64,000 nucleotides of DNA from a virus (Duplodnaviria; Caudoviricetes), in the IMG/VR virus record IMGVR_UViG_2882284595_000003, positions 9,169 through 73,168 of that record; one strand, 5' to 3'. The notes under the pieces are model-generated. The model saw only the letters and a program-made list of their open reading frames with translations, was not told the origin of the DNA and did no database searches. The translations under genes and the position numbers were made by a program. Below are positions 9,009 to 45,057 of this stretch, in pieces (position 1 is the first letter of the stretch; each line of letters starts with the position of its first letter).

Positions 9009-9676
9009 CGGGGTGGCTCCGTATTGCCGCCGTGCGGGTCGGGGTGGGTGTGGCTGTGCAGCGTCACGCCGTTGGACGACAACGCGCCGCCGCTATGGTT
9101 GATGTTGCCGCTGATGGTGGTGGACGCGCCGCCGGCGCCGCCCGATCCCGCCATGCCGGCGAGGTAACTGAACAGGCCGGACACGGTAGCTTTCGCCCTG
9201 GCTATCACGTCGCCCAGCACGGTCAAGCGGCCCAGGATCGTGACGTTGCCGGTGATGACGGTTTCCGGGCAACTCACGGTGACGAGTACGGCGGCCTGCA
9301 CCGTGGCGGTCTGGATGCCGGACACGCTGAGCGCGCCGGCGGCGTGGTTGTAGAGGATGCGGGCGCCGTCCGGGTAGACGCGCAAATGTTCGTCGGGGCT
9401 GTGGGAGGGCGCCGGCCGCTGATCGGAATACAGGCCCAGCAGCACAATGGCGGTCGCCGGGTCGCCGCTGGGACAGAGCAATATCACCTGCTCGCCCTCG
9501 GTGGGCGGGTTCCAGTCGCGGGTCTGGCCAGCGCGCGGCGCGAGCCAGGGTAGCCAGTGGCTGGTGAGGTCGCCGGATTGCACGCGCACGCGCTCGGCGT
9601 CGTGATCCACCTGGGCGATGGTGCCCAGGCGGATCAGCGACTCAATGCGGCGGGAGAGGTCTGCGTAATCGTCCAT
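9005..9676 (-). CDS. gpV: baseplate spike protein V
   Basis: LIRLGTI...WLPWL..RAG...PPTEGEQV; C-terminal HSHTH metal-binding tip. Confidence 0.94.
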   Translation of the reverse strand: MDDYADLSRRIESLIRLGTIAQVDHDAERVRVQSGDLTSHWLPWLAPRAGQTRDWNPPTEGEQVILLCPSGDPATAIVLLGLYSDQRPAPSHSPDEHLRVYPDGARILYNHAAGALSVSGIQTATVQAAVLVTVSCPETVITGNVTILGRLTVLGDVIARAKATVSGLFSYLAGMAGSGGAGGASTTISGNINHSGGALSSNGVTLHSHTHPDPHGGNTEPPR

Positions 9677-42055: not shown

Positions 42056-42462
42056 TGGTATCCCCGCGCCAGAGCGAAGTGCGGAAATTCGCGGAACGGC
42101 GCGCCTGGGCGGCCGTACCAGTTGAGGCCCAGCTCCATGCCGATGCGGCCGGCGGTTTGCCAAGCGGGGTGCCGGTCTTCCCACATCGGCTTGCCATTCA
42201 CCAGCGGGACGATGTCGAAGGCGCGCGCGGCGGGCTTGCCGTTGATCATCACGTTGTGTTCGGACTGGCCGCCTTTGGCATTGGTGACGCGCGGGCCAGG
42301 ATTGCCGTTACGGCCCTGGGCGTAGAGCTGGTCCTGCTCGGCCGGCGAGCGCCAGGTGCAGGTGATGAGGATGTCGAGGCCGGCAGCCTGGCAGCGCTGC
42401 AGGAACGTCCGGCAAAGCGGCTGCAGGTCCGGGTGAAGGTCTTCGATCTTGCGGCTGGGCAT
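42052..42462 (-). CDS. M15-family peptidase endolysin
   Basis: R...EQ..LYAQGR...VTNAKGGQSEHN...AFD...E.PHF; GGAGG RBS. Confidence 0.93.
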   Translation of the reverse strand: MPSRKIEDLHPDLQPLCRTFLQRCQAAGLDILITCTWRSPAEQDQLYAQGRNGNPGPRVTNAKGGQSEHNVMINGKPAARAFDIVPLVNGKPMWEDRHPAWQTAGRIGMELGLNWYGRPGAPFREFPHFALARGYQ

Positions 42463-42482
42463 GGTTCCCTCCTGTCAAAATG

Positions 42483-42514
42483 AAACATGCCACCCATTGT
42501 GGGGTGGCATGTTT
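42483..42514 (-). terminator. 13-bp hairpin between repressor operon and lysis genes
   Basis: AAACATGCCACCC-N6-GGGTGGCATGTTT. Confidence 0.6.
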
Positions 42515-42538
42515 GGAGGGGCGTTTAATGCGCTTTAA
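42496..42538 (-). promoter_or_regulatory. Mor/C-type late promoter 1 (lysis)
   Basis: TTAA-N6-TTAA at 42525-42538, 23-nt spacer, CACAAT -10. Confidence 0.75.
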
Positions 42539-42568
42539 AGCATGGACTTACAGGGCAGAAATGGCTTG

Positions 42569-43381
42569 CTAGGTTGATTTCTTGCAATGCGCAGGTTTGG
42601 CTTGCTCTACTATTTGCCCGGTTTGCTTATCAACGTCATACACAGTCAAGCATTCTCGTCCGCCGAATTTCTTTTTCAGCTCAGCATCTTCTGCGGCGAC
42701 AGCCGATTTGATTTGACTATCCGTTGCGCGAAGCTGTTGCTCACACTTCTGCTTGGCCTTGTGATAAGCCGCTTCATCCTTACGCAGGTATTTCGTACTC
42801 TCTACAGTTCTCTCTCGCGTCGCCGAATAAGACAGCGACTGGAGCTGTAGCGCGGCATCTTGGCAATATGCAAAATGCTCACGTTGATCATCAGGCTGAC
42901 GCTCTATCAAGGTCGGCCAACGTTCAAGCTCTGCTTGCAGTGGCTTCTGCACATGTTTGATGATGCCAGTGCCATCTCCTAACTGAATACCATCAATTAA
43001 CGACTGTTCCGCTTCATTGATCACCCGCAAAGTGCCTTTGGCAAACTGCCGGGCTTCGGTCAGCCCCATCGGCTTGACATGCTCTGGTATGGCTTGCTTT
43101 GCTTCAACTTGTGTGAGCTTTTTCTGACTGGGAGCAGATGCAACAGTAGGTGCCGTCGATTCCTGGAGAGTGGATGCCGTTGAAGCGCCTTCCGGGGCGA
43201 AAAAACCTGCTGCTACTAGCGCAACTAATGACAGCATTCCCCCACCCAGCAAAAAGTGAAGCCGCTTTGGCACTTCCTCCGTTTTTTTTCCTTTGAATAA
43301 GGATGGGGCAACCGTGCCAATGATCGCTATCAGTGAAAAAAACAAGCCGATCAGCCCAAAAATACTTGCCACCATAGACAT
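42569..43381 (-). CDS. hypothetical membrane protein (2 TM plus soluble domain)
   Basis: GGAGAGG RBS, two N-terminal hydrophobic helices, S/T/A linker, four Cys; downstream of repressor. Confidence 0.8.
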   Translation of the reverse strand: MSMVASIFGLIGLFFSLIAIIGTVAPSLFKGKKTEEVPKRLHFLLGGGMLSLVALVAAGFFAPEGASTASTLQESTAPTVASAPSQKKLTQVEAKQAIPEHVKPMGLTEARQFAKGTLRVINEAEQSLIDGIQLGDGTGIIKHVQKPLQAELERWPTLIERQPDDQREHFAYCQDAALQLQSLSYSATRERTVESTKYLRKDEAAYHKAKQKCEQQLRATDSQIKSAVAAEDAELKKKFGGRECLTVYDVDKQTGQIVEQAKPAHCKKST

Positions 43382-43481
43382 GGACCTCTCCCGACATGAG
43401 TAGTATTAGGAAACCTGCTGATGAACGCAGCAGGTTAGGTTTCATACGAATACCGCAACAGTACGGCATCTGGGAACAGAC

Positions 43482-44237
43482 TCAGCGTTTGCGCAGCTTA
43501 TGGGCAACGTGCAATGGTTGCCAATATGCCACTTGACCATTCTGGCCTGCTAAACACTGGATGTCTGGCGCATTTGGAAAGTCGATAATGCTGCCCAGCC
43601 GATACATTTGGCCTTGGTAGTTGCACTCATGCTGCTGACTCTGCAACTGCGCCTTAAGCGCGCTGGCCTGGGCTGATGAAGTATGGCTTAGATAGCCTAG
43701 GGAAATTGAAATCCCTATTGCCAGCACACTGATGGCAATCAAAACTTTCACACTGCGCTGCGCTTCGCTTAATGCCTGGGCACTGGCCACGCAATCCTCG
43801 CAAACAGTCTTATACCTGAGAGCCGGCTGCGTATAAGCGCTATAAGATGGCGCGGCTACATCATTGGCCGTTTTTTTGCTGGCCTTGTGTTCTGCAGCGT
43901 AAATTTCTTTCTTTAGCCAGCTATAGGCTTCTCGGAACCACTCAATCGGCAAGTCTTTGTACATCTTGCCGTGGAACTGGTTGGAAAAGCTGCGCCATAC
44001 TTTTTCCATGTCACGTCCGCTGGCATTGGCAAGTTGCCGTACTAAATCCCGTATTTCATTTTGTTGTTGGAGTGTTAGCAGTTCCCCTGAGAGCAACTCT
44101 TCTCCACTACGGTCAACGTGGAGATTAATCACGTTATTATTATTGAAAAACGGGGATTGATTGGTGATATCCCCGTTAATGTTTTGCTCGTTGTAGTCGT
44201 TCTGGGCTACTCGATTGTTACTGCCCTCGGTCTTCAT
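43482..44237 (-). CDS. membrane protein: N/G/Q-rich N-terminus, ORF6C-like helical domain, CxxC, TM, small Cys domain
   Basis: AAGGA RBS and ATG 44237 overlapping the repressor end; VWRSFSNQFHGKMYKDLPIEWFREAYSWL; TM VLIAISVLAIGISISLGYL; CNYQGQMYRLGS...QC...W. Confidence 0.75.
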   Translation of the reverse strand: MKTEGSNNRVAQNDYNEQNINGDITNQSPFFNNNNVINLHVDRSGEELLSGELLTLQQQNEIRDLVRQLANASGRDMEKVWRSFSNQFHGKMYKDLPIEWFREAYSWLKKEIYAAEHKASKKTANDVAAPSYSAYTQPALRYKTVCEDCVASAQALSEAQRSVKVLIAISVLAIGISISLGYLSHTSSAQASALKAQLQSQQHECNYQGQMYRLGSIIDFPNAPDIQCLAGQNGQVAYWQPLHVAHKLRKR

Positions 44238-44694
44238 CGTCCTTGCTGCCTTTCGCACCGTGATACTCGCGGTAATTCTGGCCAGCCACCCGGTTGCCAG
44301 AACCACTCACGACAATTCCCTTGGCATTATCATCGCACGGGACTGTACTAACTGGCACTGACCTAAGGGCTAGTTTCGTGACGGCTTTGGCCAACTGGTT
44401 GGCATCCACCTTCTTTTCCAACGACAGCAAATCGATCGCGTCCAGCACCGCTTGATGGACAGCGGATTCGCCTATGCCCTGGCCTTGGCGTTGGCCTAGA
44501 AGGACATATTGCACATCAACGCCAGCTGCCGCCAAAGCTGCCAGCTGTACGGCTGTTGGAGATGAAACCCCTTTTTCCCAGTCGACAAGAGTACGCCTCT
44601 TCGCGCCTGCCTTATCTGCAAAAACCTCTTGCGTAAGGCCGAGACGTTCACGCTCTTCTTTGAGTCTCAACTCAATCAAAGTGCAAATCTCCAC
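44218..44694 (-). CDS. prophage repressor (XRE HTH, no peptidase domain)
   Basis: RLKEERERLGLTQEVFA...WEKG.SSP...GVDVQYVLLG; divergent from the Ner-like gene. Confidence 0.9.
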   Translation of the reverse strand: MEICTLIELRLKEERERLGLTQEVFADKAGAKRRTLVDWEKGVSSPTAVQLAALAAAGVDVQYVLLGQRQGQGIGESAVHQAVLDAIDLLSLEKKVDANQLAKAVTKLALRSVPVSTVPCDDNAKGIVVSGSGNRVAGQNYREYHGAKGSKDDEDRGQ

Positions 44695-44705
44695 TCAAAA
44701 TAATG

Positions 44706-44734
44706 TTGACATGTGCAGATTTCTGCACAATACT
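44706..44734 (+). promoter_or_regulatory. early promoter with palindromic operator
   Basis: TTGACA at 44706, 17 nt, AATACT; TGTGCAGA-tt-TCTGCACA at 44712-44729 fills the spacer; a weaker related site overlaps the repressor start. Confidence 0.75.
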
Positions 44735-44814
44735 CAACTCACACCGTCCCACCACGAACGGCAACTTAAGCGGCACTCTCCCAAGCGCCGCCGCCCCTTG
44801 AATAGGAGCTAACC

Positions 44815-45057
44815 ATGCAACTACGTACCCCAGCCCAGGCTCGCAAGGAGCTTCAGGACAAAGGGATTTCTATTACCCAATGGGCCATCGCCAACAAGTT
44901 CTCGCCCAACCTGGTTTTTGAAGTCTTGGGCGGCCGCAAGAAGTGCGTGCGCGGCCAAGCTCATGAGATCGCAGTCAAGTTGGGCATCAAGGCTGGTGAA
45001 ATCTGCACCGACCCGGCCAATGCCTTGGCTCAGTCCCGTCGCCGCGTCGCAGCGTGA
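44815..45057 (+). CDS. Ner/Cro-like DNA-binding protein (BcepMu gp16-like)
   Basis: RTP.QA...L...GISITQWA...VL.GRKKC.RGQAH.IAVKLGIK; AGGAG RBS. Confidence 0.88.
   Translation: MQLRTPAQARKELQDKGISITQWAIANKFSPNLVFEVLGGRKKCVRGQAHEIAVKLGIKAGEICTDPANALAQSRRRVAA

Follow-up and report, generated by a model that had tools for sequence, protein, structure and literature searches.

In most studied prophages, induction proceeds via RecA-driven cleavage of the repressor or via soluble antirepressors. Membrane sequestration of regulators is known as well, e.g., of Mlc by PtsG, from anti-sigma factors, and from membrane regulators of the ToxR/CadC type. A different principle, matching short motifs in the products of neighbouring genes, is described for amyloid signalling pairs. 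According to the accessible part of the report on BASS pairs (10.1101/2020.01.06.895854), these are encoded by collinear adjacent, often closely spaced genes, of which the upstream one carries a C-terminal and the downstream one an N-terminal motif rich in G, N, Q, and V; their detection relied on similar motifs in neighbouring genes, and the reported occurrences of BASS1-10 are mainly in Actinobacteria and Cyanobacteria. A further amyloid signalling pair, Bab/Agp of E. coli, has a motif that activates a membrane-targeting killer (accessible part of 10.1101/2024.11.07.622273). Here we describe a comparable arrangement in 64,000 nt of the 73-kb IMG/VR virus record IMGVR_UViG_2882284595_000003 (Duplodnaviria; Caudoviricetes; positions 9,169 to 73,168 of the record), hereafter the window. 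The gene of an XRE-type immunity repressor is followed by the gene of a predicted membrane protein, in the following called the partner, and the repressor tail and the partner N-terminus carry copies of one short motif. From locus to locus, tail and N-terminal copies co-vary in their peptide sequence, and that the shared motifs change together suggests a mutual recognition that would link the lysis-lysogeny switch to the cell membrane.

The pairs gp17/gp18 of BcepMu and gp46/gp47 of phiE255 have the same organization as the window: the repressor gene is divergent from a ner-like gene and is followed by a membrane protein gene and then by lysis genes. In case of BcepMu the order is gp16 (ner-like), gp17 (repressor), gp18 (membrane protein), holin, and endolysin, and phiE255 is comparable. 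As in the window, the repressor tail and the partner N-terminus share a motif, which is of a different flavour, i.e., ...F-x-x-x-VGQA... at the end of gp17 and the start of gp18 and likewise in phiE255; BcepMu gp18 carries several motif-like units in tandem. The BcepMu/phiE255 partner is 28.7% identical to the window partner over 86% of the length. The BcepMu/phiE255 partner start overlaps the repressor stop by 4 nt compared to 20 nt in the window, which furthermore differs by its NRVA...Y-x-E flavour and by an acidic instead of a basic tail end. At the DNA level, the likeness is limited to the ner region, which is 77-81% identical to Ralstonia phage YO107_2 and BcepMu gp16 (77% to BcepMu). 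In the records of BcepMu, phiE255, RSA1, phiE52237, and Ps59 the annotation of the respective genes does not go beyond a regulator or repressor in the one case and a membrane or hypothetical protein in the other.

The initial annotation had likened the locus to amyloid pairs, and for the layout this holds. As in fungal HET-S/NWD2, the bacterial Bell/NLR pairs of BASS, and Bab/Agp, matching short motifs are situated at the facing termini of adjacent collinear genes, C-terminal in the upstream and N-terminal in the downstream product, and are rich in G, N, Q, and V (accessible part of 10.1101/2020.01.06.895854). The motif itself is similar too, with about 20-40 residues, enrichment in G, N, Q, V, and I, and patterned hydrophobic residues, as judged by eye from a consensus of 65 segments. 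The carriers differ, being a phage immunity repressor and small membrane proteins, and by Pfam and PHROGs neither NLR/STAND sensor domains nor Bell/HeLo-type killer domains were found in the window pair or the partner family.

In the window, repressor residues 131-143 (GSGNRVAGQNYRE) and partner residues 5-17 (GSNNRVAQNDYNE) align without gaps and are identical in 8 of 13 columns (Table 1). The eight identical residues and the ungapped alignment had been recognized correctly before, but 14 columns had been counted, and the repressor does not end with ...NYRE as then assumed, since fifteen further residues are present (YHGAKGSKDDEDRGQ). An ungapped BLOSUM62 score of 40, as obtained for this pair, was reached in 20 of 1000 shuffles of the whole proteins and in 5 of 5000 shuffles of the facing ends (last and first 45 residues, respectively). 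Compared to chance the match in the window alone is suggestive, and it becomes firm once the comparative loci are added. The flavour of the window, G-S-x-N-R-V-A...Y-x-E, is divergent from the generic core of the motif, which reads hydrophobic-x-F-x-G-x-V-G-Q-x-V-x-G-D/N-V, a loop, and N-V-V-N-L-x-x-G; partner residues 12-42 match the generic module and end with NNVINLHVD. With a hidden Markov model of the core module, the partner N-terminal module was the only significant match in the six-frame translation of the window (E=0.0013). A Pfam search of five motif segments to E=10 returned nothing relevant, i.e., no Pfam family for the motif, and an ESM Atlas search with partner residues 1-48 gave no usable match. 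Close homologues of the repressor share the tail flavour of the window. The tails of two close repressor relatives (P0085, P0086) end with ...NRVAGRDYNE, and two close partner relatives (P0006, P0007) start with ...HRIAGRDYNE; the longest contigs of these repressor and partner relatives are pairwise of equal length (25257 and 2699), and the genes may be neighbours. The window flavour is likewise found in the repressor of Pseudomonas phage Ps59, in which it occurs on both sides (ITVTGNGNRTAGQVYHE and IEVTGSNNKVAGRDFIE).

Table 1. Features of the repressor/partner locus; positions refer to the window.
Feature	Position	Strand	Remarks
XRE-type immunity repressor	44218..44694	-	158 aa
Membrane partner, coding sequence	43482..44237	-	251 aa, ATG at 44237
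Overlap of repressor end and partner start	44218..44237	-	20 nt, different reading frames
Repressor tail motif	44266..44304	-	repressor residues 131-143, GSGNRVAGQNYRE
Partner N-terminal module	44112..44225	-	partner residues 5-42
Predicted cytoplasmic helical domain of partner	43863..44090	-	residues 50-125, pLDDT >95
CxxC of partner	43791..43802	-	C146 and C149, directly before membrane helix
Predicted transmembrane helix of partner	43689..43745	-	about residues 165-183, hydropathy and AlphaFold2
Predicted periplasmic beta domain of partner	43515..43628	-	residues 204-241, conserved C205 and C228
Third gene	42569..43381	-	270 aa, two hydrophobic stretches near N-terminus (by eye), without motif
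Ner-like early regulator	44815..45057	+	phrog_925, E=2.4e-27; divergent from repressor
Promoter-like site, repressor/ner intergenic region	44706..44734	+	10 of 12 consensus positions

The repressor consists of a helix-turn-helix (HTH) part (residues 1-66), two helices (residues 75-111), and a disordered tail (residues 112-158). Pfam HTH_3 covers residues 11-57 (E=4e-10, 40 bits versus a cut-off of 23), which assigns the protein to the XRE/cI type, and in a search of the PDB with a profile built from 45 homologues, the DNA-binding domains of P22 C2 and 434 cI were matched (E of about 2e-06). As claimed in the initial annotation, an S24 autocleavage domain is absent: a Pfam scan to E=1 returned HTH families only, with HTH_3 as the domain found, and no Peptidase_S24, so the repressor is not of the autocleaving LexA/lambda-cI type. 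In the AlphaFold2 model the HTH is followed by two more helices and by the tail, most of which has a predicted local distance difference test (pLDDT) score below 50. The same applies to partner residues 1-32; both motif-bearing segments, repressor tail and partner N-terminus, are thus at pLDDT <50 in the monomer models.

BcepMu-like and P2-like phages and prophages of Burkholderia, Ralstonia, Pseudomonas, Undibacterium, and Chromobacterium, as well as further viral contigs, share the layout, in which an XRE repressor with the motif in a disordered tail precedes a membrane protein with this motif at its N-terminus. Named phages with the pair are BcepMu, phiE255, RSA1, phiE52237, several Ralstonia YO phages, and Ps59. 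The observation initially made in the window is confirmed and is far more general than one locus. An exhaustive profile search revealed 74 representative relatives of the partner at E<=0.001. Most of their listed N-termini show, by eye, variants of F-x-G-x-V-G-Q-x-V-x-G-D/N-V or of V-A-G-R-D-I/V-x-N, often followed by N-S-N-V-V-N-L. The 37 of these 74 relatives that align over the N-terminal part were used as profile for genome searches, in which matches were obtained for 15 of 401 genomes of the host-order sample (E<=0.001), 5 of 68 genomes of the host-family sample (E<=1e-8), and 28 of 401 genomes of a second-family sample (E<=1e-8), and, besides the host genome, for none of the 400 scored genomes of the class-level sample (E<=1e-6). 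A search of viral contigs with a three-member partner alignment found the window's own record alone, metagenome contigs searched with an eight-member alignment gave no match, and a word-based protein search for the partner returned three proteins, the window's own among them. P2-like RSA1, phiE52237, and their relatives as well as the Ralstonia YO phages were added by tblastn versus phage records. In total, 47 partner-family open reading frames (ORFs) with an aligned N-terminus were obtained across 58 loci (designated L). For 41 of them an XRE gene is located upstream on the same strand within 1.6 kb, one (L013) is a natural fusion, and five are without an XRE gene in the fetched flank, which often was 1.5 kb long only.

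Joint alignment of tails and N-termini (65 segments) yielded a single consensus of about 35 residues, in which conserved glycines separate short alternating-hydrophobic runs. G, N, Q, and V are abundant in the module, which is described as beta-strand-prone and occurs, as judged by eye, in nearly all tails in a bipartite form followed by a K/R-rich end. This generic consensus underlies all flavours, which vary between loci but match within a locus. VDF-x-x-A-x-IGQ-x-AAGD-x-VN is found on both sides in L042, GDF-x-GQ in L009 and L032, G-x-V-A-x-RDI in L035, L083, and L091, GQN-x-Y/F-GNI in L036, V-x-H-x-VNG in L045, and R-x-N-x-G in L085.

Co-variation of the tail motif with the downstream N-terminus, as suggested by the initial annotation, was scored by local alignment of every tail (last 55 residues) versus every partner N-terminus (first 55 residues) and was found in two differently collected sets. 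In the non-redundant set 1 (n=34), which retains the counter-example L012, the mean score was 40.0 in cognate and 29.2 in non-cognate pairs (z=8.4; 0 of 100,000 permutations). The difference was similar if no two members were allowed to be 50% identical in either segment (n=23; 39.2 versus 26.8; z=7.8; 0 of 100,000), if the genes were at most 130 nt apart (n=23; 41.3 versus 28.2; z=8.0; 0 of 100,000), and with both filters (n=19; 40.6 versus 26.9; z=7.3; 0 of 100,000). For set 2, patterns of the repressor body led to 29 IMG/VR loci and 27 pairs, the downstream gene being defined as the first ORF with 100 or more codons and a start between -60 and +260 of the repressor stop, read from the most upstream start codon; L067 (no qualifying ORF) and L092 (not a real repressor match) were left out. 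After de-duplication (n=22), cognate pairs of set 2 scored 37.6 versus 27.5 (z=5.3; 0 of 100,000), and those members that are unlike set 1 (n=15) scored 36.5 versus 29.9 (z=3.2; 62 of 100,000). The strict union of both sets (n=32) gave 39.0 versus 26.4 (z=8.65; 0 of 100,000). Cognate pairs also exceed cross pairs within a single genome and between phages of one host: for the two loci of genome G1169 the cognate scores are 58 and 30 and the cross scores 26 and 29, and for Ralstonia RSA1-type phages versus YO107_2 they are 36 and 42 compared to 16 and 26.

Shared segments at the ends of adjacent genes might be a functionless relic, left by a gene fission that duplicated the junction or maintained by DNA-level gene conversion between the adjacent copies. 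The fused forms L013 and L097 exist, and no more than about 100 nt separate the two coding segments, as such an origin would have it. The codons speak against it. For the shared N-R-V-A of the window they are AAC CGG GTG GCT and AAT CGA GTA GCC, as already stated in the initial annotation, and the argument from synonymous codons extends to the 22 cognate pairs with scores of at least 35: among their 219 identical residues, 79 use the same codon, compared to 89.2 expected from codon usage. DNA identity of the aligned coding segments of cognate pairs is 0.43-0.70. Since the same-codon count does not exceed the expectation, the match is kept at the peptide level, and recent duplication or gene conversion does not explain it. 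A single ancient duplication, in turn, would equalise the likeness of cognate and non-cognate pairs and cannot make the former exceed the latter; the cognate excess points to selection for matching. We regard a relic as highly improbable. A reading of the motif as DNA-level repeat or operator was ruled out by the same codon analysis.

The module rides a conserved repressor body as a hypervariable tail. For the 45 repressor homologues, which were selected visually so as to include diverse tails (from the 120 listed of 387 relatives at E<=1e-5), mean pairwise identity is 62% in the body and 23% in the tail, and the repressor body does not co-vary with the motif flavour. On the other side of the pair, one module is placed in front of partner bodies of seven or more unrelated kinds, and membrane segments are predicted in most of these. 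Together with three extra motif-bearing genes, the partners of set 2 formed, after removal of the first 45 residues, seven body clusters, of which six have transmembrane segments predicted by hydropathy; several of the bodies are very small proteins with two predicted transmembrane segments, and one motif flavour is found on unrelated bodies. Given that the tail, the matching N-terminus, and the membrane anchor are constant while the partner body is interchangeable, mutual recognition of the two copies would be the simplest reading.

Both motifs could instead bind a shared third factor, such as a host protease or its adaptor, a chaperone, the membrane, or DNA, in which case the partner would act as competitor or decoy or would share the fate of the repressor. 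The generic consensus beneath all flavours and the basic stretch that ends most tails fit this explanation. The basic end presumably resembles C-terminal recognition signals of ClpX such as that of MuA, and the C-terminus of the Mu repressor governs its degradation by ClpXP. Flavours differ, though, among prophages residing in a single genome as well as among phages that share a host species, one flavour is present on unrelated partner bodies, and the repressor body is conserved while the tail varies. A third factor that co-varies in this way would have to be encoded by the phage, and none is evident in the loci. We therefore consider a common third binding partner to be unlikely.

The partner itself is organized, from its N-terminus, in the motif, a helical domain, a CxxC, a transmembrane helix, and a small periplasmic Cys domain. 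It matches phrog_6521 'membrane protein' (E=1.1e-24) and, with residues 54-160, phrog_245 'anti-repressor Ant' (E=6.3e-06). Its AlphaFold2 model was built from the 37-sequence alignment and shows a long helix (residues 147-202) containing the hydrophobic segment. The hydropathy flag starts at residue 167 of a 258-aa form (locus L064), in which this ORF is started at a GTG located seven codons further upstream; this corresponds to about residue 160 of the 251-aa form. C146 and C149 are invariant in the three closest partner sequences, and a CxxC is aligned here in most of the 37 members, of whose cysteines C205 and C228 only are listed as nearly invariant. Along with G215 and W239, which show the same near-invariance among the 37 members, these two belong to the periplasmic domain, which is modelled with four strands. 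Of the domains proposed in the initial annotation, the CxxC, the single long hydrophobic helix, and a C-terminal beta domain with two cysteines were found, whereas ORF6C and DUF1496 match the family weakly and the window partner not at all: DUF1496 (PF07383) is matched by 6 of the 37 members with a best E of 0.00062, and ORF6C (PF10552) by one member with E=0.0087. A Foldseek search of the partner versus the PDB gave nothing at E<=0.001, with a weak likeness of the periplasmic domain to fibronectin type I modules, and the partner-family profile versus PDB sequences gave nothing below E=0.2.

By sequence the helical domain appears to be related to the C-terminal part of antirepressor-type proteins with Bro-N or AntA domains. 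This link is drawn from the phrog_245 match, from matches of the partner-family hidden Markov model to the C-terminal parts of a Bro-N (L016) and an AntA (L014) protein, and from a weak fold match. The best fold rows, both below the caution level of the tool (VIA-align), are small protein-binding three-helix bundles, namely a chain of the 80alpha Sak-SaPI2 Stl complex (Z 7.3, root mean square deviation 1.8, 61 residues aligned) and the C-terminal domain of Red-beta (Z 6.9, root mean square deviation 2.3, 63 residues aligned). Bro-N/AntA antirepressors have an ORF6C-like C-terminal domain; unlike them, the partner is without a Bro-N or AntA domain and is predicted to be membrane-anchored with a periplasmic domain, and its gene is not repressed by the repressor but co-transcribed with it. 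Wherever it appears, Pfam ORF6C stays under its cut-off.

Two natural fusions tie the HTH to domains of the partner and suggest that both halves act as one regulator. L013:1186-1992 (+) comprises an HTH, the motif, and an ORF6C-like domain (19.2 bits, under the cut-off of 22), and no membrane segment was seen in it; L097:1857-2586 (+) comprises an HTH, an ORF6C-like domain, and the tail motif and is followed by a separate partner. A frameshift fusion of repressor and partner was also considered, since some tails end in a lysine run with the partner frame open across it. As a general explanation it was rejected: the 20-nt overlap of the window is without a slippery run, and most partners have a start codon of their own within an ATGA or GTGA overlap.

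Considering these observations together, we assign a probability of about one half to the view that the motif is a co-evolving module for like-with-like docking, through which a repressor is coupled to its own membrane partner. The disordered repressor tail and the disordered partner N-terminus would represent two copies of one short module that recognise each other by like-with-like pairing of beta-strands, which would explain a selection for identity and not for complementarity. By such pairing, a repressor would be docked exclusively to the membrane-anchored partner that belongs to it, and the docked partner would control the repressor, most likely via sequestration or inactivation. The partner would then be a phage-specific, membrane-linked antirepressor or sensor, and the variety of flavours might keep co-resident prophages from cross-talk. 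As in the known cases of membrane sequestration, a membrane protein is here proposed to hold a DNA-binding protein, for which the fusions L013 and L097 are suggestive; the difference is that recognition would rely on a duplicated co-evolving short motif and not on a folded interface. We favour a membrane-anchored, phage-specific controller, which might inactivate, store, or stabilise the repressor. The interpretation offered in the initial annotation is, as a whole, partly supported.

Several points weigh against docking of each repressor to its own partner. The permutation counts, even those of 0 of 100,000, are not probabilities because the loci share descent. The own partner is the single best scorer for 8 of the 34 repressors of set 1 only, so that specificity would be graded and not absolute, and at L062, L041, L034, L068, and L079 the cognate pair is no better than cross pairs. 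XRE genes of L012 and L023 are without the tail motif, and the orphan partners L093 and L094 are without an upstream repressor. The window tail, too, is atypical, being too divergent for the generic module profile (E=3.9) and comprising the first half of the module only; its end is acidic instead of basic as in most other tails. Finally, repressor and partner are co-transcribed and often translationally coupled, which is odd for an antagonist unless its action is gated by a signal.

A special case of docking is an amyloid or prion-like templating, in which clustering of the partner would nucleate a cross-beta fold that converts the repressor tails in a cooperative, self-propagating switch. Layout, motif length, and G/N/Q/V composition are as in BASS (10.1101/2020.01.06.895854) and Bab/Agp (10.1101/2024.11.07.622273) as far as the accessible parts of these reports go. 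Conserved glycines between short alternating-hydrophobic stretches, the disorder of both motif segments in the monomer models, and the row of motif-like units in BcepMu gp18 point in the same direction. Conversely, no NLR or cell-death effector is present at the loci, the repressor of a lysogen must stay soluble while the same transcript makes the partner, and most tails end K/R-rich, whereas K is depleted in BASS motifs (accessible part of 10.1101/2020.01.06.895854). We consider such templating to be improbable on balance, and the same applies to the tentative view that many proteobacterial phages carry prion-like repressor tails and that a membrane sensor nucleates a cross-beta assembly disabling the repressor, i.e., a cooperative and possibly heritable switch independent of the SOS response. 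If true, it would be the first amyloid signalling in bacteria that controls a transcription factor and the life-cycle decision of a virus, and with flavour-coded specificity each prophage of a polylysogen could be triggered separately.

Control might also run in the reverse direction, with the repressor tail restraining the membrane proteins as an antitoxin or guard. Loss of the repressor would then lead to self-assembly of the partner and membrane damage, serving abortive infection, addiction, or the timing of lysis. The very small partner bodies with two transmembrane segments would suit such a role, and the XRE HTH has weak matches to antitoxin families such as HipB and MqsA, which are, however, far under the family cut-offs. 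Precedents are given by the Bab/Agp motif, which activates a membrane-targeting killer (accessible part of 10.1101/2024.11.07.622273), and by genes co-transcribed with a repressor that can mediate superinfection exclusion in other Pseudomonas phages (accessible part of PMC9936078). Against this stands the commonest partner family, whose Cys domain and antirepressor-like domain look more like a sensor than a toxin, and we consider a repressor that guards its partner to be quite unlikely.

The arrangement of the two genes varies between loci. A 4-nt overlap of repressor stop and partner start was found for 15 of the 27 pairs of set 2, and most partner genes of the IMG/VR loci L069-L076 start at a GTG or ATG with this overlap. 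A first-ATG rule would trim the motif-bearing N-terminus in L069-L076, and automatic annotation may miss the motif for this reason. L005 and L027 have two downstream motif-bearing membrane proteins each. In RSA1 (L025, 1196-2416), the repressor (ORF35) and the motif-bearing membrane protein (ORF33) are separated by an annotated transposase gene, and in the related Ralstonia YO phages repressor and partner are about 160 nt apart. The short partners of L011, L053-L056, and L059 lack the helical domain and combine the motif with a single membrane segment and the Cys domain; their frames are open back across the lysine-rich end of the repressor, and several are without an ATG before the motif. On the minus strand of L056 (offsets 1021-1402, reverse complement) an ORF of 126 codons has the module at both ends, with a partner-like N-terminus joined to the middle and tail of a repressor, and looks like a recombinant or remnant. 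The orphan partner gene L093:3958-4687 (+) has no XRE gene in 3.9 kb upstream and is located, as judged by eye, just after sspA/sspB-like host genes.

Within the window, the third gene has no Pfam family, and its PHROGs matches are all of unknown function; a homologue occupies the equivalent place in the Undibacterium locus L005. To the left of the third gene, a VanY-type endolysin gene and other genes of the lysis region are located. To the right of the repressor, the ner-like gene on the opposite strand is followed by early genes, including an AAA_22 ATPase (74.5 bits) and a weak rve match (22.9 bits, under the cut-off of 32.6). By gene order, DNA identity of the ner region, and AAA_22, with rve below its cut-off, the window belongs to the BcepMu-like transposable phages. 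An identical copy of the partner gene is present on a Chromobacterium sphagni contig. The promoter-like site between repressor and ner-like gene is no evidence on its own, as one was found compared to 1.6 in shuffles. Repressor, partner, and third gene (42400-44800) form a block of about 50% GC with flanks of about 65% GC, and such a block within a prophage of about 65% GC suggests that the immunity module was acquired from elsewhere. At the border of the third gene end and the endolysin start, a perfect 13-bp inverted repeat is located at 42483-42514 (AAACATGCCACCC, a 6-nt loop, and GGGTGGCATGTTT), after which the minus strand reads TCATTTTG; the consensus scan did not list this repeat, which probably represents the terminator of the repressor operon.

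In the open-access papers and preprints searched, supplementary files excluded, no description of a motif pair of repressor and membrane protein was found, in part as judged from listed titles and abstracts, and none of the papers searched was found to connect amyloid signalling with a bacterial prophage repressor; the accessible part of a 2026 review of amyloid switches does not mention prophages. Motif matching offers a simple computational handle to pair repressors with their partners in prophage annotation. The repressors described here have no cleavage domain but a tail that is hypervariable and is matched by the N-terminus of the membrane protein encoded alongside. If true, matching terminal motifs of neighbouring genes, known from NLR-based cell-death systems, would extend to the control of transcription. 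If the two copies dock, they would represent a widespread, so far undescribed wiring of the lysis-lysogeny decision to the cell envelope, with a specificity code that is readable from the sequence.

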